From assembly GCA_964430265.1 (NCBI GenBank), contig CAYSEI010000003.1, positions 65,070 to 129,069 of the forward strand: 64,000 nt of DNA. Direction: 5' to 3'. Below are positions 14,690 to 59,400 of the stretch, piece after piece (position 1 is the stretch's first letter; the number at the start of each line of letters is the position of its first letter). Position numbers and translations under genes: made by a program. The notes under the pieces were generated by a model. That model saw only the letters and a program-made list of their open reading frames with translations, had not been told where the DNA came from and did no database searches. Origin of the DNA: an uncultured Pseudomonadales bacterium (GTDB taxonomy: Bacteria; Patescibacteriota; Microgenomatia; UBA1400; CAYXSR01).

Positions 14690-14754
14690 CTTTGTAGTTT
14701 AGAAGTAGTTATTTAATTTCTCCATTTTGTCCTCTGCCCAAAAAAGATAAACAC

Positions 14755-16140: not shown

Positions 16141-16141
16141 A

Positions 16142-16480
16142 TGTGGAAAACTACGTGCATAAGTCCGTGGATAATTTTTCCAATTTTGTTAAAAAGTGGA
16201 TTTCTCTTTTTGGGTTTTCCACTTATCCAACTTTTTTAACAAGTTATTCCCATTTTATATCCACAAATCAATTAGATTAAATCCACACTAGTTGATTTAA
16301 AGTATGCCTGTATTTTCATTTTTTCCACGTTTCCACCGTGCCTATTACTACTACTACTGTATATTTACTATAAAGATAATACGAACGTTTTATATTTACG
16401 TATAAATTAAATAATTTTAATTGTTAAAAGTTTAATATTAAATAACCCCTAGCAAATAAACTTCAAAATTGTTAAAATAT
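16142..16480. promoter_or_regulatory. oriC: DnaA-box cluster plus AT-rich DNA-unwinding element between dnaA and dnaN
   Basis: At least 6 near-consensus TTATCCACA/TGTGGATAA 9-mers between 16142 and 16337 (16142, 16166, 16195, 16257, 16280, 16321), followed by ~120 bp of >80% AT (16360-16480). Confidence 0.75.
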
Positions 16481-16485
16481 AAAAG

Positions 16486-20276: not shown

Positions 20277-20294
20277 TTTTTTATTTATATAATA

Positions 20295-21431: not shown

Positions 21432-21482
21432 ATATGATTAAGTATACAAGATAAAATTAATTCTTAAAAGGAGTTTTTTTCT

Positions 21483-25813: not shown

Positions 25814-25859
25814 TTGTTATATATGATATCAGAAAGAGGATTTTTTCGTAATTGCCAAT

Positions 25860-26612: not shown

Positions 26613-26630
26613 AAATCTAATTATACAAAA

Positions 26631-27806: not shown

Positions 27807-27901
27807 TAAGTAAAGTTTAACATAAAGAGTAAGTCTGTTGAATTTTAAAATGAATCCTTATAATATTTCTAATATATTATTTAATTTTTAGAAAGGTTTA
27901 A

Positions 27902-28255
27902 ATGGCAGAAACAAATGCAGAAATTAATTTAAAAAAAGAAGTAGCTCAAACTGATGGATCAGAAAATATTCAAATTGAAAACAAGACTTATTCACGAGAA
28001 GAGGTTGCAGAAATGGCAGAAGAAATGTGGGAGAGTCATATTGATTCCCATCCTTCTTTAAAGAAAATTGTTAAGAGAATAGAAGAACTTGACGAAGGGT
28101 CAAAGTTAGCACTTTTACTTCTTAAAAGAGGACATTTTGACCGAGCAATTGTTGAAGGTGCGGGCCCATATGTAACTGTTGCAGCTAATGAGGTTTTGCC
28201 TTCCTTAAACAATAGAATAGATGAATTAATGCAAGTAGGGAGAGAAGATTTATAA
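27902..28255 (+). CDS. Hypothetical protein (117 aa)
   Basis: Clean ORF convergent with the giant gene; no family recognised. Confidence 0.4.
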   Translation: MAETNAEINLKKEVAQTDGSENIQIENKTYSREEVAEMAEEMWESHIDSHPSLKKIVKRIEELDEGSKLALLLLKRGHFDRAIVEGAGPYVTVAANEVLPSLNNRIDELMQVGREDL

Positions 28256-28260
28256 GAGTC

Positions 28261-43962: not shown

Positions 43963-44343
43963 TTATCTAATAGATGGGATGTCAATTTCGCTAAAGCTGA
44001 CGCCAAAGAATTGACCCACCAATTGCATAACTGCCCAAGCTGCGGCAACAATTGCCAAGCCAACTAAAGCAGCAGTTATTTTGTTGCGTGCCTCTTCATA
44101 TTGTGCTTTGTCTCCACCTGAGGTTATCCATTGAATTCCGCCCCAGACTAGGTATACAAAGGTTAAAAGTCCGGCGATTGCCAAAATAACAGTAATGCCA
44201 TTTTGAATTAATTGTCCTAATCTGCCTTCGGGAACGCCTTGTTCTGGCGGTTCCACTACAATGTCTTGTGCATAAGCAACAGATCCAGACAATAAAGTTG
44301 TTAAAACTGAACTGCCTAATTTTGCTAATTTTTTCATATTCAC
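43963..44343 (-). CDS. VirB2/TrbC-like pilin paralog
   Basis: Signal peptide ending AYAQ; WGGIQWITSGGDKAQYEEARNKITAALVGLAIVAAAW core. Confidence 0.5.
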   Translation of the reverse strand: MNMKKLAKLGSSVLTTLLSGSVAYAQDIVVEPPEQGVPEGRLGQLIQNGITVILAIAGLLTFVYLVWGGIQWITSGGDKAQYEEARNKITAALVGLAIVAAAWAVMQLVGQFFGVSFSEIDIPSIR

Positions 44344-44399
44344 CTCCTTTAATCTTATTTTTTAATTATAACTATCCCTTCTCTGTTGTCAAGGGAAAA

Positions 44400-44756
44400 T
44401 TAGATACCGAGATTAAATACTGCGTTTGTTCCGGTTGTCCCAATACCCAAGAATTTAATTGCCAGCCGCCAAATTACCCAAGCCACTGCTAGTAATGCAA
44501 GTCCAATCAAAGAATGAAGCATTTTGTTGCGTGCATCTTCTACCCGTGACTTGTCGCCTTCAGCAGTAATATATTCTAAAGCACCCCATACAAAATATCC
44601 CAGTGTAAGAAGGGCTCCAATAGCAATTGCAAAGGTAACTATATTAGAAACAAGAGTTCCAATATTTTTGATTTCAAACAATGCATCTGCTTCATCCCGG
44701 ATATTAGTGTTTACGGGTTGTGCGTATACTGGAGGAATAATGTTTAATAAATTCAT
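44400..44756 (-). CDS. VirB2/TrbC-like pilin paralog
   Basis: VYAQ leader; WGALEYITAEGDKSRVEDARNKMLHSLIGLALLAVAW core. Confidence 0.5.
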   Translation of the reverse strand: MNLLNIIPPVYAQPVNTNIRDEADALFEIKNIGTLVSNIVTFAIAIGALLTLGYFVWGALEYITAEGDKSRVEDARNKMLHSLIGLALLAVAWVIWRLAIKFLGIGTTGTNAVFNLGI

Positions 44757-44757
44757 T

Positions 44758-45093
44758 TTATTGTGGTGTTGGCCAAACTATATTTAATATATCAAAACCA
44801 AAGATTGCTTCCGCCAGGATCATAATAGCAAAGGATCCGGCTAAAAGAGCCATACCAATGAAAGCATGAGTGATTTTATTTTTAGCTGCTTCCAGTTTAT
44901 CTGGTTTGCCTTCACTCATCAGCCAGTCAACTGCACCCCAGACAAAGTATAGAAGAAGAGCCACACCGCCTACGACAACAACAGTCCTCCATAAACGGAC
45001 AAATAATGGTGCAAGTGGGTTACCGGCAACGCCAGTATATCCGCCTTCTGAATTTGGCAAAACTGGATTAGTAATTTGTGCTATTTTTTTCAT
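44758..45093 (-). CDS. VirB2/TrbC-like pilin paralog
   Basis: WGAVDWLMSEGKPDKLEAAKNKITHAFIGMALLAGSF core. Confidence 0.5.
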   Translation of the reverse strand: MKKIAQITNPVLPNSEGGYTGVAGNPLAPLFVRLWRTVVVVGGVALLLYFVWGAVDWLMSEGKPDKLEAAKNKITHAFIGMALLAGSFAIMILAEAIFGFDILNIVWPTPQ

Positions 45094-45473
45094 CAGCTCC
45101 AGAAATTTCTTATATATTCTCCCGGGTTTAATATATTTACTCCCAGGATTGATCCTACTATAAATATTACTGCATAAGCTGCCACAACTACAATAAGACC
45201 AATAGCAGCGTCTGTCAGCATTTTTTTGGATTTTTCCACTTGGTCCTGCTTACCTCCAGCAGTTATCCAATTCAGCCCGCCAATAAAAAAGTAGATAATA
45301 AAAAGAATTCCGGCAACAATTGTAAATGTGCCAATTACATTGGAAAGAATTTTTTCAAGTGTAGGAATTCCGTAATCTCCGGTATTGGGATTATAAGCTC
45401 CGGTAATTCCTTCTATTGCACCAAGATTCTCTTGGGCATAGACTTCTGTTATTAAGTTATTTAAAATTTTCAT
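45093..45473 (-). CDS. VirB2/TrbC-like pilin paralog
   Basis: VYAQ leader; IGGLNWITAGGKQDQVEKSKKMLTDAAIGLIVVVAAY core. Confidence 0.5.
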   Translation of the reverse strand: MKILNNLITEVYAQENLGAIEGITGAYNPNTGDYGIPTLEKILSNVIGTFTIVAGILFIIYFFIGGLNWITAGGKQDQVEKSKKMLTDAAIGLIVVVAAYAVIFIVGSILGVNILNPGEYIRNFWS

Positions 45474-45856
45474 ATTCCTGGTCCATAAATTTTAGGTTGT
45501 AATATTGCTGTTGCATCTTTAAAGATCAGCCATCCAAGTAAAGCAGCGATAGTAAATGAAGCAACAATGATTACCAGACCAAGAAGTGAATTAAATATTT
45601 TTTGCCAGGCGTTTTGAATTTTCTCAGGATCACCACTGGCAGTAATAAAGTCAAATCCGGCCAGAAGAAGATTAAAAAAAGTCCAAATTCCGGCAACAAT
45701 AGTTAAGGTTTTAACAATATTGCTGAGAAATCCTACCAGTCCGCCGTTGGGATTATTGTAGTCTCCATATCCGTCTTGAAGAGGGTTGCTGATATTGCCA
45801 AAAACGTCTTGCGCATAGGCAGTGGAAACAATTTTGTTATATATTTTATTAATCAT
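45470..45856 (-). CDS. VirB2/TrbC-like pilin paralog
   Basis: AYAQ leader; LAGFDFITASGDPEKIQNAWQKIFNSLLGLVIIVASF core; start trimmed to the Met giving an ATGA overlap with the upstream gene. Confidence 0.5.
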   Translation of the reverse strand: MINKIYNKIVSTAYAQDVFGNISNPLQDGYGDYNNPNGGLVGFLSNIVKTLTIVAGIWTFFNLLLAGFDFITASGDPEKIQNAWQKIFNSLLGLVIIVASFTIAALLGWLIFKDATAILQPKIYGPGI

Positions 45857-46173
45857 ATTCCAGTACCTTCCAAAATTGGCACTCCTGTAATGTATTGTAC
45901 TATTTGAATAATCCAAAAAGCAGCAAATACCAAAATAAATCCAATTATTGCTGCTGTGATCGCTTTACTGCCTTGTGCTTTTTGCTGCGGATCATTTCCA
46001 CTCGTTATTATAGCAAAACCGCCTCCTATGAGCAAAAAGAAAAGTAATAGGCCTGCTACCATTAGGACGTTGGGTAAAATAGCGGTAATAAATTCGCCAA
46101 TGCTGCCGTAGCCGGTTTTATTGGCTATTCCTTCGTTTCCAAGTTTAAATTTGTCTCCAATATCTACTGGCAT
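45853..46173 (-). CDS. VirB2/TrbC-like pilin paralog (first gene of the array)
   Basis: IGGGFAIITSGNDPQQKAQGSKAITAAIIGFILVFAAF core; a TGcTATAAT-like -10 element lies ~8 nt upstream of the ATG on the minus strand (about 46180-46190). Confidence 0.5.
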   Translation of the reverse strand: MPVDIGDKFKLGNEGIANKTGYGSIGEFITAILPNVLMVAGLLLFFLLIGGGFAIITSGNDPQQKAQGSKAITAAIIGFILVFAAFWIIQIVQYITGVPILEGTGI

Positions 46174-46253
46174 TTGCAGATATTATAGCATGTAAAACTA
46201 AAAGAGTGAAAGAGGGGAAGCTTTTTAATTGTAGGTGTTGATATAATACGTTT

Positions 46254-47237
46254 ATGCTGAAAAAAGAAATTTTAAAGTTTAAAAACCAGTTTGATCCGCT
46301 GTTAAAGAAAAAACTAAAAAAGGAAGAAAGTCTTTTTTTTAAAGAATATTCACTGCTTATTAGAGAGATTGAAAGAGTAACCTTTTCTGGAGGAAAACGG
46401 ATCAGGCCATTGTTGGTATGTTGGGGGTATCAAGCAGTTGGTGGAGGAAATTTTGCAGATGTAGTTGATGCATGCTTTAGTATTGAACTTTTTCATACAT
46501 TTGCTTTGATACACGATGATATTATGGATAAATCAGAAAAACGTAGAGGTAAAATAACTACTTGGAAAAAAATAGGAGTTGATAAAGCAATTTTGACAGG
46601 AGACTTGTGTTTAAGTTTAGCGGATGAATACTTTCCTCAAAAAGCAAATAAAAAATATTTTAATTTATTAAAAAAAGAAACCTGTCTGGGTCAGTATTTG
46701 GATATTCAGAACAATAAAGAATTTAGTGAAAAACAAGTAAGAAAAATTTTAGATTTTAAAACTGCAAAATATACAATTGTCCGTCCTTTGCAGATTGGTG
46801 CTAGTTTTAAAACGCAAGATGATAAAATTATGAAGCTTTTTTTGAAATATGGTAAAAGAATGGGAACAGCATTTCAAATAAAAGATGATTTATTGGGTGT
46901 TTTTGGAGAAGATAATAAAACAGGCAAGCCAGTTGGAGAAGATATTAGTGAAGGGAAAAAAACCTTGCTGATTGCAAAGTTAAAAAAAATAGGAAAAAGT
47001 ATGAAAAAAAAGGAGAAAGAAAAATTTTCAAATTTGTTTAACTGTAAAAAAAGATTAAACAAGAGTGAACAGAAATTCATTATTAACCTTTTTAAAAAAT
47101 ATAATATAGACAAAGAAGTAATTGCAGAAATGCAAAAAGAAGCAGAACAGGCAAGAAAGATAATCAACAATTCGGATATAAAAGAAAAAGAAAAACTTTT
47201 ACAAATGACTCAATATCTTATTAATAGAGAACATTAA
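46254..47237 (+). CDS. Short-chain trans-polyprenyl diphosphate synthase (GGPP/FPP synthase type)
   Basis: First DDxxD motif LIHDDIMD and second FQIKDDLLG; 327 aa. Confidence 0.85.
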   Translation: MLKKEILKFKNQFDPLLKKKLKKEESLFFKEYSLLIREIERVTFSGGKRIRPLLVCWGYQAVGGGNFADVVDACFSIELFHTFALIHDDIMDKSEKRRGKITTWKKIGVDKAILTGDLCLSLADEYFPQKANKKYFNLLKKETCLGQYLDIQNNKEFSEKQVRKILDFKTAKYTIVRPLQIGASFKTQDDKIMKLFLKYGKRMGTAFQIKDDLLGVFGEDNKTGKPVGEDISEGKKTLLIAKLKKIGKSMKKKEKEKFSNLFNCKKRLNKSEQKFIINLFKKYNIDKEVIAEMQKEAEQARKIINNSDIKEKEKLLQMTQYLINREH

Positions 47238-47780
47238 ATGAACGAAAAAAAACTGATTAGCAAAATACTTAAAGGAAACAAGCGAGCAAAAAAGAAATTT
47301 TATCAGTATTATAAGCCGCGGCTGGTTAAATATATCCAAATAAAAACGCCAAATAAACAAGATGCAGAAGAGATTTTACAAGATACATTTATGTCTGCTT
47401 TTTTATCTTTGCCTAATTTTAAACAGGACAGTTCTTTGTATACATGGCTTTGTTCAATAGCCCGGCATGAAATAGCGGATTTTTACCGCAAAAAAAAGAT
47501 TAAGACTATTGTTTTTTCCCGCTTGCCTTTTCTAGAAAATTTATTTTCTGAAGCTTTGGGACCGGAATTAAAATACAAGGAAAAGAAGATAAAGGAAAAG
47601 ATTAGTGATTCTTTTGGCAGTTTAAAAAAAGAATACGTGCAAATTCTCAAACTTAAATATATTCATAACAAATCGGTGAAAGAGATTGCTAAAATACTGG
47701 GTAAGAGTTTTAAAGCAACAGAATCACTTCTTTACCGGGCAAGAAAAGCATTTCAAAGGGAATACTTATTGCTTGATTAA
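47238..47780 (+). CDS. ECF-type RNA polymerase sigma-70 family factor
   Basis: Region 2 (…DTFMSAFLSLPNF…YTWLCSIARHEIADFYRKK) and region 4 HTH (…VKEIAKILGKSFKATESLLYRARKAF…). Confidence 0.65.
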   Translation: MNEKKLISKILKGNKRAKKKFYQYYKPRLVKYIQIKTPNKQDAEEILQDTFMSAFLSLPNFKQDSSLYTWLCSIARHEIADFYRKKKIKTIVFSRLPFLENLFSEALGPELKYKEKKIKEKISDSFGSLKKEYVQILKLKYIHNKSVKEIAKILGKSFKATESLLYRARKAFQREYLLLD

Positions 47781-47824
47781 AAGCAAATTCGAATGATTTT
47801 TCTTTTTTTTACGACAGATATAGT

Positions 47825-48166
47825 GTGACTAACAAAGTAAAAAAAGTTTGTAAATACACGATATTGTTTTCTATCAAAGAATCTTATCTTTTTGTGCGCA
47901 ATTTACTGGGTTTATGGACACATCCGTATAAAACACTGCGTTTAATTAAAAAAGAAAAAGATTATAGTCAGGCAATTCTTGTATTAGGATTCCCTTTTTA
48001 CATTATTTTCTTTGGCACCTTTTTTATATTCTTTTCTCGGATACTGATTGGTGCTCCCTCTGATTGGGGAAGATTAGCGCAAGCAAGTTTTTATTCATTG
48101 TTTTTTATTTCTTTTATGGTTTTTATATACATTACTTATTGGGGAATGAAGGTTAGAAAGGATTAA
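47825..48166 (+). CDS. Small membrane protein (possible anti-sigma factor partner)
   Basis: 113 aa with 2-3 TM helices immediately downstream of the ECF sigma gene; function from context only. Confidence 0.3.
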   Translation: MTNKVKKVCKYTILFSIKESYLFVRNLLGLWTHPYKTLRLIKKEKDYSQAILVLGFPFYIIFFGTFFIFFSRILIGAPSDWGRLAQASFYSLFFISFMVFIYITYWGMKVRKD

Positions 48167-48167
48167 A

Positions 48168-48464
48168 ATGGGAAAATATGAACGATATCGTAGTGAACGA
48201 TTATTTAGGGCAAGTTTTTCCCGGGATGGATTTGAAAATGGTTTAGGATTAGCTCATAGAACAGGATTACAGAAAGAGATGATTACCATTCCCAAAAGTG
48301 TTTGGGGGATACAAAGGTCTTCGCCTACTGAAAGTTTAGGCGAGGAGAAAATAATTGAAATGAGAGAAGATGTTGAAGCAATGTTAAAGCTAAGAAGCAA
48401 TGGCCATAATTTGGATGGACTTTATACTATTAAAGATTTTGAAGAAGTAGGAATATTGGAATGA
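48168..48464 (+). CDS. Hypothetical protein (98 aa)
   Basis: ORF translationally coupled with idi (overlap ATGA at 48461); no family recognised. Confidence 0.4.
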   Translation: MGKYERYRSERLFRASFSRDGFENGLGLAHRTGLQKEMITIPKSVWGIQRSSPTESLGEEKIIEMREDVEAMLKLRSNGHNLDGLYTIKDFEEVGILE

Positions 48465-48970
48465 AAGTTGTTGTAGTTAATAAAAATGACAAAGAAATAA
48501 GTTTTTTGGGCAAAATAAAAGCACACAAAAAAGGAAAACTACACCGCGCATTTTCTATTTTTGTGTTTAATGATCAAGGTGAATTATTAATTCAAAAACG
48601 TTCCAAACACAAATTGTTGTGGCCGGAATTTTGGTCAAATACTGTATGTTCACATCCTTTACCAAAAGAAGAAACTATTGATGCCGCACAAAGAAGGCTA
48701 AAGGAAGAATTTGGTTTTTCAACAGAATTAGGGCTGGAGTATAGATTTCAGTATTATGCTGAATATGGTGATGTGGGAATAGAACATGAGCTTTGCCATG
48801 TTCTTATCGGGAATTACAATGGTAAAGTAAAGCCGGACAAAAAAGAAATTGCTGATTATAAATGGATAAATATTAACAAATTAAAACAACAGATTAAAAG
48901 AAGTCCGGATAAGTTTACTCCTTGGTTTAAAAAGGAGTTTAAAGAATTAGTAAAAAGGGGAATAATTTAA
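48461..48970 (+). CDS. idi: Isopentenyl-diphosphate delta-isomerase, type 1 (Nudix)
   Basis: HRAFSIFVFNDQGELLIQKRSKHKLLWPEFWSNTVCSHP and Nudix-box-like ETIDAAQRRLKEEFG. Confidence 0.85.
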   Translation: MKVVVVNKNDKEISFLGKIKAHKKGKLHRAFSIFVFNDQGELLIQKRSKHKLLWPEFWSNTVCSHPLPKEETIDAAQRRLKEEFGFSTELGLEYRFQYYAEYGDVGIEHELCHVLIGNYNGKVKPDKKEIADYKWININKLKQQIKRSPDKFTPWFKKEFKELVKRGII

Positions 48971-49929
48971 TGGTTAAAGTTTCTGCGCCTGGGAAAATCC
49001 ATTTATCCGGTGAACACAGTGTCGTTTACAAAGAGCCAGCTCTTTTATCAACTCTTAATAAGAGACTGTATATAGAGATACAAGAAAAGGAAAATCAAGG
49101 ATTTATAATTGAAGATTTAGAACAAAAGCTAGAAGAAAAAATTAATTTTCCAGAATTAAAGGAATTTTCAAAAAAAACAGTAGAAGTTTGGAAGAATAAT
49201 GATAGATTAGGATTAGTGAAGGCTAGTATTGTGGAGTTTTTTAAATATTTAAACCAAGAGCCGAAAAAGGGGTTTCAGGTAAAAATTAAATCACAAATTC
49301 CTATTGGAGTAGGATTGGGTTCTTCAGCTGCATTGTCAGTCTCTTTAGCAGGAGCATTTTTAAAATATTATAAAAAATGGTCATTGAGTGAAATAAACAA
49401 GGTAGCCTATTTAATTGAAAAAAGGCAGCATAAAAGTCCTAGTGGTGGTGACAATACTGTATCGACGTATGGTGGATATATTTACTATGTTAAAAATGAA
49501 GAGATACAAAAATTTAATGGAAAGACATTAAAAGATTTTTATATTATAAACTCAGGAAGACCATTGGAATCAACAGGAGAAATGGTGGATTTGGTAAGTA
49601 ACAATTTAAATAAAAAAACTATAAAAAAAATGGGGGAAACTACAGTTGCTTTAAAAAATGCAATTGAGAAAAAAGAATATCAAGAAATAAAAAAGCTAAT
49701 TAAGAGAAATGAAAGATTGTTAGAAGAAATTGGAGTTGTGGGAGAAAGAGCGAAAAGAATAATTAGAGAGATTGAGAAAAATAGAGGTTCTGCTAAAATA
49801 TGCGGAGCTGGAGCGGTAAAGCAAGGATCAGGTATAATATTAGCCTATAAGCCGGATATTGATAGTTTAAATGTGGAATTTGAAAAACTAAAATTAGGGG
49901 TGGAAGGAGTCAGAATTGAAAAAAGTTAA
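48970..49929 (+). CDS. GHMP kinase, mevalonate kinase
   Basis: N-terminal APGKIHLSGEHSVVY; ATP-binding PIGVGLGSSAALSVS; 319 aa. Confidence 0.65.
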   Translation: MVKVSAPGKIHLSGEHSVVYKEPALLSTLNKRLYIEIQEKENQGFIIEDLEQKLEEKINFPELKEFSKKTVEVWKNNDRLGLVKASIVEFFKYLNQEPKKGFQVKIKSQIPIGVGLGSSAALSVSLAGAFLKYYKKWSLSEINKVAYLIEKRQHKSPSGGDNTVSTYGGYIYYVKNEEIQKFNGKTLKDFYIINSGRPLESTGEMVDLVSNNLNKKTIKKMGETTVALKNAIEKKEYQEIKKLIKRNERLLEEIGVVGERAKRIIREIEKNRGSAKICGAGAVKQGSGIILAYKPDIDSLNVEFEKLKLGVEGVRIEKS

Positions 49930-50890
49930 ATGCTCTGCACCAGGTAAATTAATGCTTTTTGGTGAACATGCAGTTGTACACGGAAAGCCTTGCATTGTAA
50001 CTGCGGTTGACCAAAGGATTCATGTAGAGGCAGAAGAGAATGGAAAAGATGAATTGGTTGTAAATGCTCCCCAGTTAGGGATTAAAAACTATCATAAAAC
50101 AGTAAAAGAGCTTTGTAACCAGGAAATGCCTAAACAGGTCAGTTTTATTGAAGCTTTGGTAAAGCGGTTTTATGAAAAATATGGACTTGAAAAAGGTTTA
50201 AATATTACTACCAATTCAGAGTTTTCCCATACATACGGTTTTGGGTCTTCATCAGGAGTAACAATTGCTACTACAAAAGCTTTGTCACTTTTATATGATA
50301 TTCAGCTGTCGGAAAAAGAGATCTTTGACCTTGGGTATCAAGCGGTTCTTGATATCCAAAAAGTCGGCAGCGGATTTGACTTGGCTGCAGCTTTATGGGG
50401 GAAGATTATTTATTACAAAAAAGGTGCAGAAATAGTAGAAAGACTAAGTGTGCATAATCTCCCCCTTGTTGTTTGTTATTCAGGAATTAAAGCAGATACA
50501 CCTACGCTTGTAGAGCAAGTTAATGAATTTAAAAGAAAAAAACCTAAAAAAGTTGCAAACATTTTTAAACAAATGCAGGAAATTGTAGATCTAGCAAAAA
50601 AACTTATACCCCAGAATAAATGGGAGGAGTTAGGTAAACTAATGAATCAAAACCAGGAATTATTGGAAGAATTAGGTGTTTCAACCTACAGATTGGAAAA
50701 CTTGATTAGTGCGGCAAGAGATGCGGATGCATTGGGTGCTAAATTGTCTGGAGCTGGAGGGGGAGATTGTATTATTGCCTTGGTTGAGGAAAATAAAAAG
50801 ATAAAAGTTAAAAAGGAACTGGAAAATGCAGGCGGACAAATAATGGATGTTAAATTAAATTCCAAGGGGGTTAAATGTCAGGAAATATGA
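49916..50890 (+). CDS. GHMP kinase, probable phosphomevalonate kinase
   Basis: APGKLMLFGEHAVVHG; GFGSSSGVTIA; second GHMP kinase, placed between mvk and mvaD. Confidence 0.5.
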   Translation: MKKVKCSAPGKLMLFGEHAVVHGKPCIVTAVDQRIHVEAEENGKDELVVNAPQLGIKNYHKTVKELCNQEMPKQVSFIEALVKRFYEKYGLEKGLNITTNSEFSHTYGFGSSSGVTIATTKALSLLYDIQLSEKEIFDLGYQAVLDIQKVGSGFDLAAALWGKIIYYKKGAEIVERLSVHNLPLVVCYSGIKADTPTLVEQVNEFKRKKPKKVANIFKQMQEIVDLAKKLIPQNKWEELGKLMNQNQELLEELGVSTYRLENLISAARDADALGAKLSGAGGGDCIIALVEENKKIKVKKELENAGGQIMDVKLNSKGVKCQEI

Positions 50891-51870
50891 AAGCCAGCTG
50901 CAAGTCTCCGGCAAACATTGCTTTTATAAAATATTGGGGAAAGACTGATCCTGAAACACGTGTGCCGCAGAACAATTCCATTTCAATGTGTTTGTCTAAT
51001 CTTTACAGTATATGTACTGTAAAATTTGATGAAAAATATGCTGAAGACGAAGTCCAATTTTTAAATGAAAAAGTAGTTAAGGATAGGGAAATTAAAAGAA
51101 TAATTGAAACTTTGGATCGGGTGAGGAATAAAGCAGGGATAAGTTATAAAGCAAAAGTAGTAACTAAAAACAACTTTCCCAAAGCAACTGGGATTGCTTC
51201 TTCAGCTTCCGGACTGTCTTCTTTAACTGTGGCTGCGGCAAAAGCAGCTGGATTAGATTTGAATAAAAAAGAGATGTCGAAGCTGGCAAGACTGGCTTCA
51301 GGTACTGCTTGTAGGTCAATACCGGATGGTTTTGTGGAATGGGAAAAAGGAACGTGTAAAAAAGACTCATATGCAAAACAAATATATCCCACCGATTACT
51401 GGGATATAGTGGATATTGTAGCTATTGTGACTAAGAAAATGAAAAAAATTTCCTCAACCAATGGCCACAGTATGGCGGATACCAGCCCTTTTCAAGAAAC
51501 AAGAATTAAAAATATGCCAGAAAAAATTAAAAGATTTAAAAAAACACTTGAAAAAAAGGATTTTTATGAATTTGGCAATATTTTGGAAAAAGAAAGTTTA
51601 AATATGCATGCAATCTGTTTAACCAGTAAGCCGCCGATCCTTTATTGGGAAGCAACAACCATGACAATAATGCGTAAAGTTCGGGAGTGGCGTTCAAAGG
51701 GTTTGCCTGTGTATTTTACAATTGATGCTGGTCCAAGTGTGCACATAATTTGTAAAGGTAAAAGTGCGGAAATTGTGCAGGAAAAGCTGAAAAAAATAAA
51801 AGGGATTGACAGGATTTCTCTTAACAGGTCTGCAAAAGGGGCAAAAATAATAAAAAAACATTTGTTTTAA
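50875..51870 (+). CDS. mvaD: Diphosphomevalonate decarboxylase
   Basis: SPANIAFIKYWGK N-terminal signature and GHMP-like ATP loop (…TGIASSASGLSSL…). Confidence 0.85.
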   Translation: MSGNMKASCKSPANIAFIKYWGKTDPETRVPQNNSISMCLSNLYSICTVKFDEKYAEDEVQFLNEKVVKDREIKRIIETLDRVRNKAGISYKAKVVTKNNFPKATGIASSASGLSSLTVAAAKAAGLDLNKKEMSKLARLASGTACRSIPDGFVEWEKGTCKKDSYAKQIYPTDYWDIVDIVAIVTKKMKKISSTNGHSMADTSPFQETRIKNMPEKIKRFKKTLEKKDFYEFGNILEKESLNMHAICLTSKPPILYWEATTMTIMRKVREWRSKGLPVYFTIDAGPSVHIICKGKSAEIVQEKLKKIKGIDRISLNRSAKGAKIIKKHLF

Positions 51871-51885
51871 GGAGTTGCGGTAATA

Positions 51886-52584
51886 ATGCAGAAATTATGC
51901 GGTAATAAACTACCTAAACACGTTGCTTTTATAGTTGATGGCAACCGTCGCTGGGCAAAAAAGAATAATCTTTCAAGTATGGCTGGACATCGTCATGCAA
52001 TGTACAATGTTTTGGATCCAATTGCTTTTCATTGCATAAAGTTAGGTATTCCATATTTAACTTACTGGGTTTTTTCCACGGAAAATTGGAAAAGAGGCAA
52101 AAGGTTTTACAATGCGCTTTTTAAGCTTTTGGAAGAAGGGTTAAACAAGGGTTTTGAAAAATATGACAAGGCAGGCATCCGTTTAAATACTATTGGCAAC
52201 TTAAGTGAAATCCCTTCCCATTTGGCAAAGAAAATAAAGGAGTGGGAGGAATTAAGTAAAAATAACAAAAATTTAACAGTTACTATTGCTTTAAATTACG
52301 GTGGTAGAGAGGAAATAGTTCGAGCAGTAAACAAATACAACGAGCAGGAAAAAAGAAAATTAAATGAAGAAAAATTCCCTCAGTATTTAGATACCGCAGA
52401 CTTGCCGGATCCGGATTTAATTATTCGTACTGGAGGAGAAAAAAGACTTTCCGGCTTTTTATTATGGCAGTGCCAGTACTCGGAGCTTTATTTTACTGAC
52501 ACATTAATGCCGGATTTCAGTATAGAAAAATTTGAAAAAGCTTTAAAAGATTTTTGTCAAAGGCAGAGGCGCTTTGGAAAATAA
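51886..52584 (+). CDS. uppS: Undecaprenyl-diphosphate synthase (cis-prenyltransferase)
   Basis: HVAFIVDGNRRWAKK, …YWVFSTENWKR…, and C-terminal RFG. Confidence 0.85.
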   Translation: MQKLCGNKLPKHVAFIVDGNRRWAKKNNLSSMAGHRHAMYNVLDPIAFHCIKLGIPYLTYWVFSTENWKRGKRFYNALFKLLEEGLNKGFEKYDKAGIRLNTIGNLSEIPSHLAKKIKEWEELSKNNKNLTVTIALNYGGREEIVRAVNKYNEQEKRKLNEEKFPQYLDTADLPDPDLIIRTGGEKRLSGFLLWQCQYSELYFTDTLMPDFSIEKFEKALKDFCQRQRRFGK

Positions 52585-52902
52585 TTAGATACCTAGCATG
52601 GCTTTAACAATTTGGTAGATCCAAAAAGAAAGAAAAACAACTCCAAAACCAATAGCTCCATTTGTCAAGCTTTTTTTAGCATTAGCCATTGTTTCTTCAT
52701 TACCAGCAGAAGTCATTAATTGAAAGCCACTGCCTAAAATGATAAAAAGAAGAATTAAGCCAGCGATTACAAAAACATAGTCTAAAGCAGAAGTAATAAC
52801 TGTTCCTAAAGTTGCATCTGGACCACTAAATTTAAAACCGCTTGGATCATTTACGTGTCCTGAGCCGGTTAGTCCTGGCAAAGACAGCCATAATAACATC
52901 AT
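52585..52902 (-). CDS. VirB2/TrbC-like pilin paralog
   Basis: LGSGFQLMTSAGNEETMANAKKSLTNGAIGFGVVFLSF core matching the 43.6-46.2 kb array. Confidence 0.45.
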   Translation of the reverse strand: MMLLWLSLPGLTGSGHVNDPSGFKFSGPDATLGTVITSALDYVFVIAGLILLFIILGSGFQLMTSAGNEETMANAKKSLTNGAIGFGVVFLSFWIYQIVKAMLGI

Positions 52903-52903
52903 T

Positions 52904-53755
52904 TTATAACCCCCATCCTGGTATTTTTAATATTCTGTACCCGATTAATTCTAGTATAAAAACAGAGAAGATAATAAACAAAAGGCCGGCACCAGCAGAA
53001 ACTAAAATGTTTTTACCTTCTTGTAATTTTTCCGGATCCCCGGAGCTAGTCATTACTTGGAAAGCTCCCCAAATCATAATTAAAAAAGCTATACCGCCGC
53101 CAATTGAGATTGCTTTGTTTAAAAACCAGCGGATAAAAATTGTGGATTGGGTGGGAACACATCCAAGAACAGTTTCAATACCTTCAAAATAGTCATTAGG
53201 ATTACTTCCTACAGGAATTCTGCAATCATTAGGTTCATAAAAAGTTTTTGTGTTGTCATTGGTATTAGAGGGATCTTGACACCTAAATACTCCTGCTTGA
53301 ATTTCTGTACATACTTGAGATCCAGGGCATGTACATACACCTCCGCCGCAGTTGTCATTAGGGCCACATTCGTCAGTTGCGCTTTCCTCACATGTTCCAA
53401 TGAAATATCCGGAAGCTGTGCATGTATTAGGACAGTTTCCTGGAAAATGAGAACCATCACATTTATCATCGTAATATTCACAAAAACTACCTTGTTGAGT
53501 ACAGATATATTCGTTGGTGGAAAAATCAACAAGTTGGCATTCGCGAGGATCTATTGTGCACTCAGTTATATCTAATCCAGAACAGTCACCAGGAATAAAT
53601 CCGCTTTCGCAGTTATTGCTACCGGATAACTCACATTGTCCGGGTGGTTGCCATACACATTGATATGTCCCTTGTGAATAGACACCCCTTGTAAAAAATA
53701 AAAAAAAGTTACAGAACAAAAAAAGGTTTAATATTAATTTTAATTTTTTCTTCAT
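52904..53755 (-). CDS. Cysteine-rich extracellular domain fused to a C-terminal VirB2/TrbC-like pilin module
   Basis: Signal peptide; ~170-aa domain with ~30 Cys (…CVWQPPGQCELSGSNNCESGF…CTCPGSQVCTE…); C-terminal …WGAFQVMTSSGDPEKLQEGKNILVSAGAGLLFIIFSVF… pilin core. Confidence 0.5.
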   Translation of the reverse strand: MKKKLKLILNLFLFCNFFLFFTRGVYSQGTYQCVWQPPGQCELSGSNNCESGFIPGDCSGLDITECTIDPRECQLVDFSTNEYICTQQGSFCEYYDDKCDGSHFPGNCPNTCTASGYFIGTCEESATDECGPNDNCGGGVCTCPGSQVCTEIQAGVFRCQDPSNTNDNTKTFYEPNDCRIPVGSNPNDYFEGIETVLGCVPTQSTIFIRWFLNKAISIGGGIAFLIMIWGAFQVMTSSGDPEKLQEGKNILVSAGAGLLFIIFSVFILELIGYRILKIPGWGL

Positions 53756-53801: not shown

Positions 53802-55517
53802 ATGGTGAGGATGAAAAAACTGCTCAAATTTTCTATTTCTATTTTTGTGGTTTTAAGCGTATTTTCTGCTGCTGTTTTACCGGCCAAAGGATATGATGAA
53901 ATTGAAAAGCTGCAAAAAGAGATTGAAGAACTGGAAAAAGCAAAAAAAATGAGTGAAGAGGCAACTGAGCCTTTGGAAGCAGAGCTTGTGAGATTACAGC
54001 AAAAACTACAAAATATCCAAGCGGGAATTGCACAAGCGGAAAATGATTTGAATAAGTTGGAGCAGAGTATAAATACACGGGAAAAAGAGTTTGAGGATCA
54101 GTATGTTATTTTAGCTGAAAGAGCTTCACGATATTATAAGTCTTTACGTATGCCGTCACGGATGATGTTTTTATTGTCTTCGGAAACAGCTTCTTCTTTA
54201 ACCAAGAATATTGCTTACAAAAACGCAGTCACCCAGGAGGATAAAAAAATTATTTCACAAATCAGCAAAGATCTTTTAAAGCTGGAAGAAGATAAGCTTA
54301 AGCTTGAGCAGCAAACAAAGCAACTGGCTTCTTTAAAAGCAAAAACTGATAATCAAGCAGCATTTTTTCAAAAAGAAATTGCTGGTGCAAAAGATTATCA
54401 AGAAGATTTAAGTCAAAAAATAGAGGAGCTTACCGAAAAACAAAAGGAAATTTTGGCAGCCAGATCAGGAACTTTTACTACGAGTGTAGGTAATGTGCCT
54501 GACAGCAGTATTCCTTGTTCTGGTCCTCCAGGAACTCCATCATATTGTGATCCGGGCGGTGGAACCTGGTTTGCTGCTTTTTCTTTTGGCGCTTGGACTC
54601 ACAGAAAAGGAATGAGTCAGTACGGAGCCAAAGCAAGGGCGGAATCTGGCCAGAATTACAAAGATATATTAAAAGCTTATTATGGAAAAGAGCCGGTAAG
54701 CAAAGATACAGGTGGAAATATTTCCGTACAGGGATTTGGGGACTTGAATTTTGAAGATTACTATTTAATGGGAATTGCAGAAATGCCTTCAAGTTGGCCG
54801 GAAGATGCTTTAAAAGCACAAGCAATAGCAGCCAGAACATATGCTTACCGCTATAAAAAGGAAGGCAGTGCAATTTGTACCACCCAAAGTTGCCAGGTGT
54901 TTAATAATGGCAAAGCTGCCAGCCCGCCGGAAAAATGGAAAAAGGCAGTCCAGGATACAAAAGGACAAATAATAGAGGATGTAACCACTTTTTATTCTTC
55001 TACTTCGGGAGGATATTTAACCACACATACTGGCTGGGATACCAAGTGTGGGAGCAAAGATTGCTGGCCGGATGATGCCTGGGAAGTTGAAGCAAATTCT
55101 CCCTGGTTTTATAGTGCCTGGTACACTGATACGTATAATCCAAATTCTGCTAAATGCGGCAGAGGTAATCCTTGGCTGAACTCAGAAGAAATGGCAGATA
55201 TTTTAAATGCTTGGAAAGTTTTGCAAAAAGAGAATGATGAAAGAATCTTGCCGGTGACAATTAATGAATGTCCGATTGGCGGTAACACTGGGAATCCGTA
55301 TTCAATGGAAGAGTTGCGCAGTAAAGGAGGCGGTTATTCCAGTATTTCTTCTGTAAGTGTAAGTTACAGTAATGGTGGAGAAACAGGTTCAATCTCATTT
55401 CAGACAGATAAAGGATCAGTAACAGTTTCTGGTTCAGAATTTAAAAAGGCGTTTAATTTACGTGCACCCGGATATATTGCAATCCGCAGTCCCTTGTTTA
55501 ATATTGAGAAAAAATGA
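53802..55517 (+). CDS. SpoIID/LytB-domain protein with N-terminal coiled coil (peptidoglycan remodelling)
   Basis: Signal/anchor, ~200-aa coiled coil; SpoIID/LytB signature …WTHRKGMSQYGAKARAESGQNYKDILKAYYGK…. Confidence 0.5.
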   Translation: MVRMKKLLKFSISIFVVLSVFSAAVLPAKGYDEIEKLQKEIEELEKAKKMSEEATEPLEAELVRLQQKLQNIQAGIAQAENDLNKLEQSINTREKEFEDQYVILAERASRYYKSLRMPSRMMFLLSSETASSLTKNIAYKNAVTQEDKKIISQISKDLLKLEEDKLKLEQQTKQLASLKAKTDNQAAFFQKEIAGAKDYQEDLSQKIEELTEKQKEILAARSGTFTTSVGNVPDSSIPCSGPPGTPSYCDPGGGTWFAAFSFGAWTHRKGMSQYGAKARAESGQNYKDILKAYYGKEPVSKDTGGNISVQGFGDLNFEDYYLMGIAEMPSSWPEDALKAQAIAARTYAYRYKKEGSAICTTQSCQVFNNGKAASPPEKWKKAVQDTKGQIIEDVTTFYSSTSGGYLTTHTGWDTKCGSKDCWPDDAWEVEANSPWFYSAWYTDTYNPNSAKCGRGNPWLNSEEMADILNAWKVLQKENDERILPVTINECPIGGNTGNPYSMEELRSKGGGYSSISSVSVSYSNGGETGSISFQTDKGSVTVSGSEFKKAFNLRAPGYIAIRSPLFNIEKK

Positions 55518-56542: not shown

Positions 56543-58479
56543 AACAGCTTAAATTGGAATATGCCAAAATTGTAGGGGCAGGACCTGAGGCTATACCTGA
56601 ATTGGATAATAAACAAGGATGGGCGCAAACGCACATTTTTATTCCTCAAGACAACAAAAAAAAACAAGCTGGTAATTTACTGGCAACTTTTTCTTTAAAA
56701 GCCAGGCAAAAAGGAATTGATGTAATATCATATGGTAAAGAAATAATTACCCGTTTCCACGAAATTTATTATTCTTCTGCAGAAAATGAGATTTTTAAGC
56801 GTTTAGAAGAAAGTTTAAAAAATTTACAAAATGAATTTATAAACGAGGTTAACCTTTCAGTTATTGCCGGTGTTGTTTTTGAAAAAAAGGACAAAAGTAT
56901 TGGATATTTTAGCAAAACCGGAGAAGGTGGAGCCTTTTTATTCAGAAACGATAAACTAATAACTTTGCTTGCTCCACAGAGTGGAAAAAAAACAGTCTCT
57001 GGAGTGCTTGAATCACAGGACAAATTATTGCTGGCAACAGAACAATTTTTTACTCCTTTGTCTTTGGGTGTTTTAAGGGCTGGATTCAAAAAAGAAAAAA
57101 CTGAAGAAATAGCAGAAGAATGGTCAACTATAATTCACGGACGACAAAACAATACAGAGACAGCAGCGGTTATTGTAAAGGTTGAAATAGAACAAGTTTT
57201 TGAAAAAAAAGAAGTTTCTTTGCAGCCGGTTGCAAAGAAAAAACAAACAAAAAAAAAGAACCTAAAGGATAAATTAGATGCTTTAAAAAAGTTTCCTTCA
57301 ATTTTTAAAGGATTTTTAAAGGATTTTAAAAGGGAGCGAAGCAGATATTACCAAAGTAAAAAGAAAAAAAAGAAAAGTAAAAAAACAACTTTAATAGTGG
57401 CAGTAGGTTTAATTATTCTTTTATTAGTCAGTGTATTTTTTGGTGCAAAACAAAAAACACAGCAGCAAGAAAAAGCAGCTTATCAAACAGTTGCTGAGGA
57501 AGTAAATCATTTATATGATGAAGCAGTTTCACAAATTGAAGTAAATCCGGTACGTAGTCAAAGTCTTTTAAAAGAAAGCAAAATTCTTTTGGAAGAGAAA
57601 ATGCCTGAGATAAGTGAAGAGTATCAAGCGGACCTTGAACAAATGCAAAAAAAAGTGGAAGCAAAAATTGAGGAACTCTCACGCAGCTACCAAATAAAAG
57701 AACCTGATCTTTGGCTGGATTTGAATCTGGCAAAAGAAGGTTTTTCCGGTAATGTATGGGGAGTAACAGAAAAAAAACTATATATTCTACAAGAAAACGC
57801 AGAAAGTATTTTAAGTGTGGATCAAAAAAGCAAGTCTTACCAAATTGCTGCTGGCGGTGATGAATATGTATCTACTGAAAAAGTGGCGGCAGTTAATGAT
57901 CGGCTATTTTTAAACACTTCAAGCAATAATTTATGGGTAATTGATGTTTTAGAAAAAGAATCAATTCAGAAAAAGCAAGAGCAAGAATGGGGGGAGATAA
58001 CTGATACAGTTGGATTTGGCAGCAACTTGTATTTGTTGGATAAAGGAGAAAAGCAAATATGGAAGTATGTAGGTATAGAGGCAGGATTAGGGGACAAAAC
58101 AAAATATTTGCAAGAAGATGTTGATCTTTTACAAGAAGCTGAGTCATTGGCTATCGACGGATCAATTTGGGTATTGACGAAAAACGGGGGAATTTTAAAG
58201 TTTATCCGTGGTGAAAGGGATCATTTTGTGGTTACAAGTCTTTTAGATCCCTTTATTGAACCCACTGATTTATATACCAGCCCTGAAGTTGACAATCTTT
58301 ATATCTTAGATAGAAAAGGATTACGGATTGTATTGATTGACAAAAAAACCGGTGAATACAAAGCGCAATACAAATGGTCGGGATTAGCTGCAGCAAAACA
58401 GATATTTGCTGACGAAGAAAACGGATATATCTTGGTTTTAACAGGAAATAGAATATATGAGTTGGAGCTGAAAAAATGA
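56539..58479 (+). CDS. Hypothetical membrane-anchored protein (646 aa)
   Basis: N-terminal cytoplasmic domain, K-rich segment, TM helix (TLIVAVGLIILLLVSVFF), C-terminal extracytoplasmic domain; start trimmed to the Met at 56539. Confidence 0.5.
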   Translation: MKQLKLEYAKIVGAGPEAIPELDNKQGWAQTHIFIPQDNKKKQAGNLLATFSLKARQKGIDVISYGKEIITRFHEIYYSSAENEIFKRLEESLKNLQNEFINEVNLSVIAGVVFEKKDKSIGYFSKTGEGGAFLFRNDKLITLLAPQSGKKTVSGVLESQDKLLLATEQFFTPLSLGVLRAGFKKEKTEEIAEEWSTIIHGRQNNTETAAVIVKVEIEQVFEKKEVSLQPVAKKKQTKKKNLKDKLDALKKFPSIFKGFLKDFKRERSRYYQSKKKKKKSKKTTLIVAVGLIILLLVSVFFGAKQKTQQQEKAAYQTVAEEVNHLYDEAVSQIEVNPVRSQSLLKESKILLEEKMPEISEEYQADLEQMQKKVEAKIEELSRSYQIKEPDLWLDLNLAKEGFSGNVWGVTEKKLYILQENAESILSVDQKSKSYQIAAGGDEYVSTEKVAAVNDRLFLNTSSNNLWVIDVLEKESIQKKQEQEWGEITDTVGFGSNLYLLDKGEKQIWKYVGIEAGLGDKTKYLQEDVDLLQEAESLAIDGSIWVLTKNGGILKFIRGERDHFVVTSLLDPFIEPTDLYTSPEVDNLYILDRKGLRIVLIDKKTGEYKAQYKWSGLAAAKQIFADEENGYILVLTGNRIYELELKK

Positions 58480-58907
58480 AAGTTGTAAACAGAAAAGCAC
58501 GCTATGAATATGAAATTTTGGAAAAGTATGAAGCAGGAATAAAACTCAAAGGACACGAGGTTAAAAGTATTAAAGAAGGAAGAATTAAACTAGAAGGAAG
58601 TTATGTCAAAATAATTGACAATGAAGCATATTTAATTAATGCCCATATTCCTCTTTATCAATATTCGGTTGATCCGGATTATGAACCCAGCCGCAGCCGT
58701 AAACTGCTTTTGCATAAAAAAGAAATTCTTAATCTTAAAGACAATGTAAAAGAAAAAAATTTAACAATTGTCCCTTTAGCCTGTTATGCCCTTAAGGGAA
58801 ATATAAAAGTACAAATTGGACTTGCCAGGGGTAAGAAGAAATGGGATAAGAGAAGAAAAATCAAGGAAAGAGAACTACAAAGAAGAAAAAAACAGATTAT
58901 CAAATAA
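58476..58907 (+). CDS. smpB: SsrA-binding protein
   Basis: MKVVNRKARYEYEILEKYEAGIKLKGHEVKSIKEG… canonical SmpB N-terminus, basic C-terminal tail. Confidence 0.9.
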   Translation: MKVVNRKARYEYEILEKYEAGIKLKGHEVKSIKEGRIKLEGSYVKIIDNEAYLINAHIPLYQYSVDPDYEPSRSRKLLLHKKEILNLKDNVKEKNLTIVPLACYALKGNIKVQIGLARGKKKWDKRRKIKERELQRRKKQIIK

Positions 58908-58965
58908 TAAGCCTGTTAAAGTCTATTTACATTCATCCTATAATTTAGTAAAATATACCTGTAAT

Positions 58966-59400
58966 GGGGATGAAGAGATTCGACGGAAAGGGTTCTTTAA
59001 AAACTGCAAGCCGACTTTGAACAATAGTCGCAAAACAGGTTTAAAAAAATAAACGTCAGCAAATTATCTGACAAACTAGCCGATCTAGGCAACGAAGTTG
59101 CTGCTACTTTTAGTCAGCAACCACGCGTAGTTTACGCTTAAAGTTACTAGAAAAGCTACTCCACCTTGATGTGGAGCGTTTTAGTCCGTTTTCCCTGGGG
59201 AATTGGCTAAGGCGAGAACTTACTCAGGGCGTCATTTTTAAAACATTGAGGCCGGTTTTAAAAAGGAGTTAAATTAAAGGTCTTATTCCCAAAGAATTTG
59301 TTTTGTTTGTTTCTCTCTTTGGGTTATAAAACAGACTAAGCTTGTAGAAGTTTTTACTGAGGCTTTTCGGACGGGAGTTCACTGCTCCCCATCTCCACCA
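58966..59400 (+). ncRNA. ssrA: tmRNA (transfer-messenger RNA)
   Basis: 5' GGGGATGAAGAGATTCGACGG… and resume region AATAGTCGCAAAACAGG…GCAAACGAAGTTGCTGCT…TAA (tag ANEVAATFSQQPRVVYA); 3' tRNA-like end GGACGGGAGTTCACTGCTCCCCATCTCCACCA with acceptor pairing GGGGATG/CATCTCC that includes a G3:U wobble (alanine identity); directly after smpB. Confidence 0.8.

Follow-up and report, generated by a model that had tools for sequence, protein, structure and literature searches.

The 64,000-nucleotide stretch of contig CAYSEI010000003.1 analysed here, which we call the window, carries at positions 46254 to 52584 a run of nine genes that we read as an isoprenoid and lipid-carrier operon of the Microgenomates, within the candidate phyla radiation (CPR). 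According to this reading, to which we assign a probability of about 70%, the genes for the upper half of the mevalonate pathway have been deleted from the operon, and an extracytoplasmic function (ECF) sigma factor encoded within it probably activates the operon by way of a conserved promoter.

The nine open reading frames (ORFs) are close-packed on the + strand and fill the whole interval. Neighbouring genes overlap by up to 16 nt or lie at most 44 nt apart, an operon-like layout: the sigma gene starts directly after the stop codon of the first gene, the stop of ORF98 overlaps the start of the isomerase gene by 4 nt, and uppS starts 15 nt past the decarboxylase gene, a synteny between mevalonate genes and the cis-prenyl synthase (cis-IPPS) that is kept in most relatives. 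An earlier note, drawn up from the letters and their open reading frames, had described the locus as a lower mevalonate operon that includes both prenyl-chain synthases. Family matches bear this out, and every gene it named is present where it had been placed, on the + strand and in the expected family; its list was right for eight genes and overlooked the ninth, a 98-aa ORF at 48168-48464. The features of the locus and its flanks are as follows.

46239..46247, + strand: extended −10 box TGaTATAAT, a candidate housekeeping promoter, read from the sequence.
46254..47237, + strand: tIPPS, a predicted short-chain trans-prenyl diphosphate synthase of farnesyl or geranylgeranyl diphosphate (FPP/GGPP) type (PF00348, 184.8 bits).
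47238..47780, + strand: ECF-type (group 4) sigma-70 factor, 180 aa (Sigma70_r2 and r4_2; TIGR02937, 86.9 bits, cut-off 42.9).
47789..47815, + strand: candidate ECF-type promoter motif TCGAATGATT-N10-TTACGAC, the only match in 64 kb.
47825..48166, + strand: 113-aa two-helix membrane protein with a GTG start (no Pfam or NCBIfam match).
48168..48464, + strand: ORF98, a 98-aa lineage-restricted orphan, coding by its substitution and codon-position patterns.
48461..48970, + strand: IDI-1, type 1 isopentenyl-diphosphate isomerase, Nudix fold (NF002995, 159 bits, cut-off 127; TIGR02150, 139, cut-off 106).
48970..49929, + strand: GHMP kinase A, a mevalonate-kinase paralogue (TIGR00549, 181 bits, cut-off 163).
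49916..50890, + strand: GHMP kinase B, an archaeal-type mevalonate kinase (TIGR00549, 216 bits, cut-off 163).
50875..51870, + strand: MVD, mevalonate (di)phosphate decarboxylase (TIGR01240, 281 bits, cut-off 171).
51886..52584, + strand: UppS, undecaprenyl diphosphate synthase, the cis-IPPS (PF01255, 249 bits; TIGR00055, 236, cut-off 110).
43963..46173, − strand: six small genes for proteins like type IV secretion system (T4SS) pilins, diverging from the operon (PF18895 above cut-off in the three members tested).
52585..53755, − strand: two T4SS-pilin-like genes converging on uppS (PF18895, 43.6 and 32.5 bits).
53802-55517, + strand: SpoIID-domain gene (SpoIID, 71 bits).

Across all retained genes the ratio of nonsynonymous to synonymous substitution rates (dN/dS) runs from 0.04 for the sigma factor to 0.23 for kinase A, at dS values of 0.6-2.8, which indicates purifying selection on all of them. 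Rfam gave no non-coding RNA in the operon region, its only matches elsewhere in the window being a tmRNA and two tRNAs.

To place the locus, the window proteins and the upper-pathway proteins of relatives were located by tblastn on 82 loci, with eight more loci added afterwards (loci are cited below by their L numbers). The closest named relatives of the MVD belong to Beckwith-, Shapiro-, Woese-, Levy-, Roizman- and Gottesmanbacteria, and then to Chloroflexi. This agrees with the CPR placement put forward in the earlier note and sets the locus in the Microgenomates; a horizontal origin from Firmicutes or archaea, which the note had raised, found no support in the hit lists, where Chloroflexi come closest after CPR. 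A scan of reference genomes returned no close relative, the best match reaching 56% identity.

The Microgenomates loci share a recurrent gene order: a pilin array (−), the sigma gene, one or two small membrane-protein genes, the genes for HMG-CoA reductase (HMGR), HMG-CoA synthase (HMGS), acetoacetyl-CoA thiolase (AACT) and a DUF35 protein, then IDI (in some cases), kinase A, kinase B, MVD and UppS, followed by pilin genes (−) and a SpoIID gene (+). The pilins and SpoIID flanking the window operon match this order, as confirmed by Pfam, and on the MVD/UppS side the order of pilins followed by SpoIID is shared with L001, L020, L023, L032, L050 and L085. Since the flanking genes agree, the window locus is orthologous to the Microgenomates locus. 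Among the nearest relatives with a full cluster, L085 and L088 (63-66% MVD identity) read tIPPS, sigma, membrane protein, HMGR, HMGS, AACT, OB, IDI, kinase A, kinase B and MVD, and L090 has the same order without tIPPS. Judged by gene order, the trans-prenyl synthase gene is the addition upstream of sigma in the window clade, as seen in L085, L088 and L084.

The HMGR-HMGS-AACT-DUF35 block that lies between the membrane-protein gene and IDI in the nearest full-cluster relatives is missing from the window. Queries for these four proteins taken from L001, L002, L085 and L088 gave no tblastn match anywhere in the 64 kb, and none of the scanned window ORFs had a Pfam match to upper-pathway enzymes; the earlier statement that HMG-CoA synthase and reductase lie outside the window thus holds. 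The same upper-less junction from the membrane-protein gene to IDI is found in L084 (76% identity) and L087 (86-91% over three gene pieces), both from independent assemblies, which shows the deletion to be real and no artefact of assembly. L083 (89%) begins within IDI and agrees with the window operon in its downstream part. Clusters without the upper genes were also seen in L089 and in loci of Woesebacteria type (L003, L004, L007 and L009). When the HMGR of L088 was used as a query, the most promising NCBI match, P0138, proved to lie in another genome, one with a complete cluster. On comparison of these sequences, the four upper genes have been cleanly excised in the window lineage, and the orphan ORF98 now occupies their slot. 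The isoprenoid autonomy that the earlier note had read into the operon does not follow, as the upper genes lie within the cluster in relatives and are deleted here.

ORF98 has a single true homologue, 87% identical, among 1.84 billion representative proteins. The pair shows a dN/dS of 0.15 and differences of 13:4:22 over the three codon positions, and because of these two properties we regard ORF98 as a real gene. It had no Pfam or NCBIfam match and no similarity to upper-pathway genes or to the 107-aa ORF found in the same slot of L084. That ORF98 might be a fragment of an upper gene was considered and dismissed: tblastn and tblastx detected no remnant of HMGR, HMGS, AACT or DUF35 between 47700 and 49000.

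The earlier note had looked on the sigma factor and the membrane protein as an unusual insertion into a biosynthetic operon. The relatives do not agree with this description. Among the 26 informative Microgenomates loci (those with HMGR and enough upstream sequence), 24 have a sigma homologue at most about 1.15 kb from the mevalonate genes, in co-directional or divergent orientation. The sigma factor is the most constrained gene product of the cluster (dN/dS 0.04), contains only sigma-70 regions 2 and 4, and has SigM_subfam as its second-best NCBIfam match (86 bits, below the cut-off of 148). It is followed by two families of small membrane proteins that are conserved across 22-23 lineages. 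One, a single-pass protein of about 76 aa in the relatives, is absent from the window clade; the other is marked by a cytoplasmic N-terminal motif, GL..(H)PY.T.R, and is represented in the window by the 113-aa protein (79% identical in L084, 40% in L085; dN/dS 0.12). This protein is a candidate anti-sigma factor or sensor partner. Of the sigma/anti-sigma pair that had been proposed, the adjacency of a sigma factor and a small membrane protein stands; the anti-sigma role is a prediction from conserved gene order and the conserved cytoplasmic motif.

A promoter-like motif may tie this sigma factor to the mevalonate genes. The motif was first recognised in intergenic regions as TCGAATGATT-N10/11-TTACGAC. 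Its window copy, GAATGATT-N11-TACGAC at 47791-47815, is single in the 64 kb (0.02 expected) and consists of a −35 element GAAT, 17 nt and a −10 element CGAC, placed 9 nt before the GTG codon of the 113-aa gene. A scan of 52 Microgenomates sequences, 854 kb in all, for GAATGATT-N11-14-CGAC gave 20 matches, every one on the strand that carries the mevalonate genes and none on the other; shuffled sequences gave a mean of 0.35 matches and a maximum of 2. Twelve of the 20 copies stand directly before HMGR; in the copies closest to it the ATG start codon follows 10-12 nt past CGAC, and this was seen in six lineages. Five more lie within the 3' end of the sigma gene, ahead of membrane-protein genes, two between the sigma and membrane-protein genes (the window and L084), and one before IDI in the upper-less locus L089. 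Looser variants precede HMGR in L029, L037 and, as a second copy, L005; in L008 one precedes IDI-UppS. The 17 nt that separate AAT from CGA are the classical spacing of ECF promoters, and the motif fits what is expected of ECF targets: an AAC-like −35 element, a spacer of about 16-17 nt and CGT or CGA at −10.

The presence of the motif also follows the sequence of the sigma factor itself. A helix signature in region 4, ESL(L/I), mostly in the form FKATESLL(F/Y)RAR, is found in 16 of the 20 motif-bearing loci and in none of the 11 motif-less ones. Within the clade of the window sigma factor, motif and helix occur together in the window and L084 and are both missing from L085, L088 and L090. The synteny, the motif, its orientation and its spacing to start codons are observed; that this sigma factor is the protein recognising the motif is what we infer.

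Upstream of the first gene of the cluster, a TGnTATAAT box was found in the window and in all four relatives inspected. Its distance to the start codon is 6 nt in the window, within 6-8 nt in L084, L088 and L090, and larger in L085. From this we suggest a housekeeping promoter giving a leaderless tIPPS-sigma transcript. A generic promoter scan did not list the TGaTATAAT box of the window, which has a weak −35 region; that scan and the accompanying terminator scan performed no better on the window than on shuffles and were not used. As a separate observation, tandem heptamers are present at or just upstream of the sigma start in three relatives, (GGGCTAC)n in L089 (5240-5350) and (ATGATTT)n in L001 (3080-3122) and L084 (1240-1290); they are absent from the window.

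These elements would fit together as follows. tIPPS and the sigma factor would be transcribed constitutively from the housekeeping extended −10 promoter, and the membrane partner (the 113-aa protein, with the single-pass protein of about 76 aa also present in relatives) would hold the sigma factor. An envelope or lipid-carrier signal would free it to fire the promoter at 47791-47815, and this internal promoter would serve ORF98, IDI, both kinases, MVD and UppS as well as the membrane protein, whose expression would act as a negative feedback.

We then considered the enzymes of the pathway. From family membership, kinase B would phosphorylate mevalonate: it scores 142 bits against the Methanosarcina mazei mevalonate kinase 6MDE, is 82-89% identical in close relatives and has a dN/dS of 0.06. 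Its paralogue, kinase A, would add the second phosphate, the decarboxylase would yield isopentenyl diphosphate (IPP), and IDI-1, again from its family, would isomerise IPP. Kinase A thus presumably performs the phosphomevalonate kinase (PMK) step, by pathway logic. Its best sequence matches in the PDB are mevalonate kinases, and the first 16 Foldseek matches of its AlphaFold model (pLDDT 90.9) are all mevalonate kinases as well; the PMK-like Lin0012 comes at rank 19, and among the top 50 there was no bona fide PMK, the Streptococcus pneumoniae PMK entries 1K47 and 3GON not being among them. Homologues of kinase A are labelled 'mevalonate kinase' in public records. Kinase A is also the fastest-evolving gene of the cluster, its constraint being relaxed (dN/dS 0.23), and it is absent from L084, where IDI overlaps kinase B directly. 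An attempt to single out one of the two GHMP kinases as the PMK was given up: family models, the PDB sequence search and the structure search all return 'mevalonate kinase' for both. Going by these family models, no protein of the locus belongs to a recognised PMK family, whether GHMP (TIGR01220/ERG8), archaeal (NF040957) or the animal P-loop type.

The MVD is most likely a diphosphomevalonate decarboxylase (MDD). It scores 281 bits on the MDD model TIGR01240 versus 188 bits on the model for phosphomevalonate decarboxylase (PMD), and the catalytic Asp284 is intact (FTIDAGP). Its signature residues were compared with Table 4 of PMC3857490: they are Tyr20, Lys23, Arg29, Ser142, Thr144 (a Ser to Thr change) and Ser194, with K23 (in YWGK) as the equivalent of Lys21. 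In 39 non-CPR loci, 33 have neither Lys nor Arg at this position (Asn in 17, Val in 13, Gln in 2, Asp in 1), and five (L042, L048, L055, L074 and L078) have one or the other. The CPR loci have Lys or Arg there, except L014 (Val) and L031 (Thr).

A different substitution was noticed in the MVD homologues of 23 of 51 Microgenomates loci, in which the catalytic Asp is replaced by Asn within the motif (F/Y)(T/A)(V/I/L/M/F)NTG(Q/H)(D/N)(I/V/M)H, as read from the alignment to residues 276-294 of the window MVD. These loci are L005, L008, L010-L017, L019, L025, L026, L029-L031, L033, L034, L041, L047, L054, L070 and L071. Because loss of the catalytic Asp converts the decarboxylase into a 3-kinase (PMC9254496), many of the CPR proteins annotated as MVD may not decarboxylate. 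The window MVD and all Chloroflexi proteins read FTIDAGPxVH at this site, and the window enzyme is not affected by the change.

At the two ends of the operon, the prenyl synthases complete the proposed route. The best NCBIfam matches of tIPPS are short-chain enzymes (IdsA, FPP and GGPP synthases), every one of them below cut-off. Its first Asp-rich motif, at residue 88, is DDIMD with a Phe at position −5, which points to a prenyl synthase of the short-chain type. Two DDxxD motifs had been reported for this protein; the first is confirmed, and the second, at residue 211, reads DDLLG, the third Asp being lost (relatives have DDLLD in L085 and DDYLA in L088). Compared with L084, the tIPPS gene has a dN/dS of 0.18. 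IDI-1 contains both its Cys motif (NTVCSHP) and its Glu motif (EHE), and UppS carries DGNRRWA (dN/dS 0.05). tIPPS would make FPP, or possibly GGPP, as the allylic primer that UppS would elongate to undecaprenyl diphosphate.

Several points weigh against the reading of a sigma-driven operon deprived of its upper half. The motif pattern was defined after the data had been seen, and the related lineages are not fully independent. The motif is absent from the Gottesman-type loci and from the closest full-cluster relatives, L085, L088 and L090, so the circuit is not universal. The usual positive autoregulation of ECF factors is missing, in that no copy of the motif was found upstream of sigma, only the TGnTATAAT housekeeping-type box, and neither Pfam nor NCBIfam recognised an anti-sigma domain in the 113-aa protein or the proteins of about 76 aa. 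The motif could also be bound by another regulator. On the side of metabolism, TIGR01220 (PMK) gives 55.6 and 118.5 on the two kinases (cut-off 165.7) and NF040957 (archaeal PMK) 30.7 and 103.5 (cut-off 500), the closest solved structure to the MVD is the decarboxylase of Anaerolinea thermophila (303 bits, the best true MDD reaching 213), which has been identified as a PMD (PMC9254496), and with the upper genes gone from the cluster the source of mevalonate is not accounted for by the locus. The sigma factor might instead be a mere syntenic neighbour, concerned for example with the adjacent pilin arrays or with general stress, and the motif an operator for some other protein or an unusual housekeeping promoter. 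In L002 the sigma gene lies beside a pilin array, 4 kb from the mevalonate genes, several lineages keep the sigma gene without the motif, and no autoregulatory copy lies upstream of sigma. We nevertheless judge this explanation unlikely: in Levy-type and Woese-type loci the sigma gene adjoins mevalonate genes with no pilins nearby, no motif precedes any pilin gene and all 20 copies point into mevalonate or membrane-protein genes, the geometry is that of an ECF promoter and not of TTGACA/TATAAT, and the presence of the motif tracks the region-4 helix.

Three further explanations concern the pathway itself. The operon might follow the route of Chloroflexi and haloarchaea, in which kinase B would produce mevalonate 5-phosphate, the decarboxylase would act as a PMD, and an isopentenyl phosphate kinase (IPK) would be encoded elsewhere, leaving kinase A dispensable or with another role. 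The A. thermophila structure, with which the MVD shares Arg29 and His198, speaks for it, as do the rapid evolution of kinase A, its resemblance to mevalonate kinases and not to PMKs and its deletion in L084, and IPK homologues have been reported in Microgenomates (PMC6107057). We think it improbable that the window enzyme works in this way. K23, the residue in contact with the terminal phosphate of the diphosphate substrate, is kept as in all true MDDs, the Chloroflexi relatives having Asn or Val (Table 4, PMC3857490); Ser142 and Ser194 are MDD-like, the MDD model gives the higher score, and no gene of the amino-acid-kinase family (the IPK fold) was found among the scanned window ORFs or the annotated relatives. 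The classical diphosphate route is preferred by roughly two to one over the PMD/IPK route, which stays a serious contender. As for the source of mevalonate, HMG-CoA synthesis may truly have been lost, the sigma-controlled lower pathway then salvaging mevalonate (or phosphomevalonate) supplied by a host or by the surroundings. Such auxotrophy is compatible with the sigma-driven operon; in its favour are the deletion of the upper block from its ancestral position in the window, L083, L084 and L087, the independent upper-less clusters of L089, L003, L004, L007 and L009, and the purifying selection on the lower genes that were kept. True loss with salvage appears unlikely, though somewhat less so than the two alternatives just weighed. 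The absence of the upper genes applies to the 64-kb window, where no mevalonate transporter is evident, and early and late enzymes share their distribution in CPR, with two separate clusters in some taxa (PMC6107057). Because of this published co-occurrence, relocation of the upper genes within the genome is the more likely explanation. A bolder combination, in which a dedicated circuit of ECF sigma factor and membrane sensor drives lipid-carrier supply in the Microgenomates and this lineage salvages host mevalonate after losing HMG-CoA synthesis, appears unlikely as a whole; if true, it would describe a natural mevalonate auxotrophy that binds an ultra-small bacterium to a mevalonate-producing host. 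A last explanation, that the operon is decaying towards pseudogenes now that the upper pathway is lost, is very improbable. The upper genes are gone, the constraint on kinase A is relaxed, and L084 (2532-5920) has in addition lost kinase A and gained a PIN toxin-antitoxin pair before uppS (a PIN-domain toxin and a 97-aa partner inserted between MVD and UppS); against decay, the nine ORFs are intact and translationally coupled, dN/dS stays at 0.04-0.23, and the catalytic motifs are intact.

The operon itself is of a known kind. Mevalonate genes in CPR and their synteny with cis-IPPS have already been described (Hoshino & Gaucher 2018, PMC6107057): in CPR/Microgenomates the mevalonate genes typically cluster with cis-IPPS, and in some taxa they form two separate clusters. 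The window agrees with that description in its mevalonate kinase, its second GHMP kinase (their PMVK), the decarboxylase (their DPMD), IDI-1, the link to cis-IPPS and the taxon; it differs in having a trans-IPPS gene at the 5' end and in lacking the archaeal-type AACT, HMGS and HMGR-I genes that lie inside the cluster in most relatives. The text of PMC6107057 contains no match to 'sigma' and is silent on the sigma factor, on its membrane partners and on the promoter motif, and in the literature covered, which is incomplete, we found no paper tying a sigma factor to mevalonate genes in Patescibacteria. Neither the proposed sigma/promoter circuit nor the clean loss of the upper half was found in the literature covered, and both are additions. 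A predicted sigma regulon in CPR, where transcription is almost uncharacterised, with the essential isoprenoid and lipid-carrier pathway as its target, would be useful if confirmed, and it can be tested in vitro without cultivation. The recurrent loss of upper genes with retention of the lower pathway under selection, likewise useful if confirmed, points to genome rearrangement or to scavenging of host mevalonate, and thereby to a definite metabolic dependency to search for.

Two well-studied sigma factors offer comparisons for the proposed circuit. In the sigM-yhdL-yhdK operon of Bacillus subtilis (Roney & Rudner 2024, PMC11081497) an ECF sigma gene is likewise followed by genes for membrane proteins, with a link to undecaprenyl phosphate (UndP). 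The membrane partners in the window are unrelated in sequence to these and much smaller; the promoter lies downstream of sigma, with no positive autoregulation; and SigM controls how the carrier is used and recycled, while the circuit proposed for the window would act on the operon that makes it. Sensing of UndP by the window circuit would be pure analogy. In Myxococcus xanthus the ECF sigma factor CarQ is held by CarR, a multi-pass membrane anti-sigma factor without a classical domain, and activates carotenoid (isoprenoid) genes through promoters of ECF type (PMC8156234). The targets of CarQ are a carotenoid desaturase gene and its own operon, under the control of light, whereas the window circuit would act on UppS and the core pathway to C5 precursors, and the window membrane protein shows no sequence relationship to CarR (DUF1109).

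For the enzymes, the closest parallel to the decarboxylase is the Chloroflexi/haloarchaeal route (Dellas et al. 2013, PMC3857490; structure 6N0X), at about 47% identity, 303 bits and with Arg29 and His198 in common; the window differs from this route in keeping the Lys for the terminal phosphate, in having a second kinase and in that no IPK was seen. The window operon also resembles the mvaK1-mvaD-mvaK2 operons as a lower mevalonate operon that would supply the undecaprenyl carrier. These operons of Gram-positive cocci feed undecaprenyl phosphate to peptidoglycan synthesis; they encode a bona fide GHMP PMK (TIGR01220) and IDI-2, and have no link to a sigma factor or UppS.

The window is chromosomal, with dnaA, dnaN, smpB and tmRNA, two tRNA-Ser genes and pentose-phosphate genes. 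dnaA (14755-16140) and dnaN (16486-17607) coincide with the lowest point of the cumulative GC skew and follow a gene-free stretch of about 1 kb, and this region (13730-17607) is probably the replication origin. A T4SS-like set follows on the − strand at 17612-37164, with a VirB4/TraG-type ATPase (17612-19663), a PrgI-family protein (20295-21431) and very large ORFs, one of which encodes 2967 aa with PP2C phosphatase and glycosyltransferase-2 segments. The T4SS-pilin-like arrays that flank the operon (six and two genes, PF18895) are conserved across Microgenomates; the last pilin-like protein of these arrays (283 aa) has a Cys-rich extracellular extension. At 5601-6200 (−) a 199-aa protein contains an RskA_C (anti-sigma-K C-terminal) domain and is possibly another anti-sigma-like protein; among the scanned ORFs, no sigma gene adjoins it. 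The smpB gene is directly followed by the tmRNA gene (58476-59400, +; Rfam, 108.5 bits), which was not reported by ARAGORN. Finally, at 1007-2783 (−) a transketolase is split into N- and C-terminal genes, beside rpe, gap and rpiB. The split protein was considered as a possible Dxs and set aside, with 45 bits for DXP_synthase_N versus 148 for Transketolase_N.

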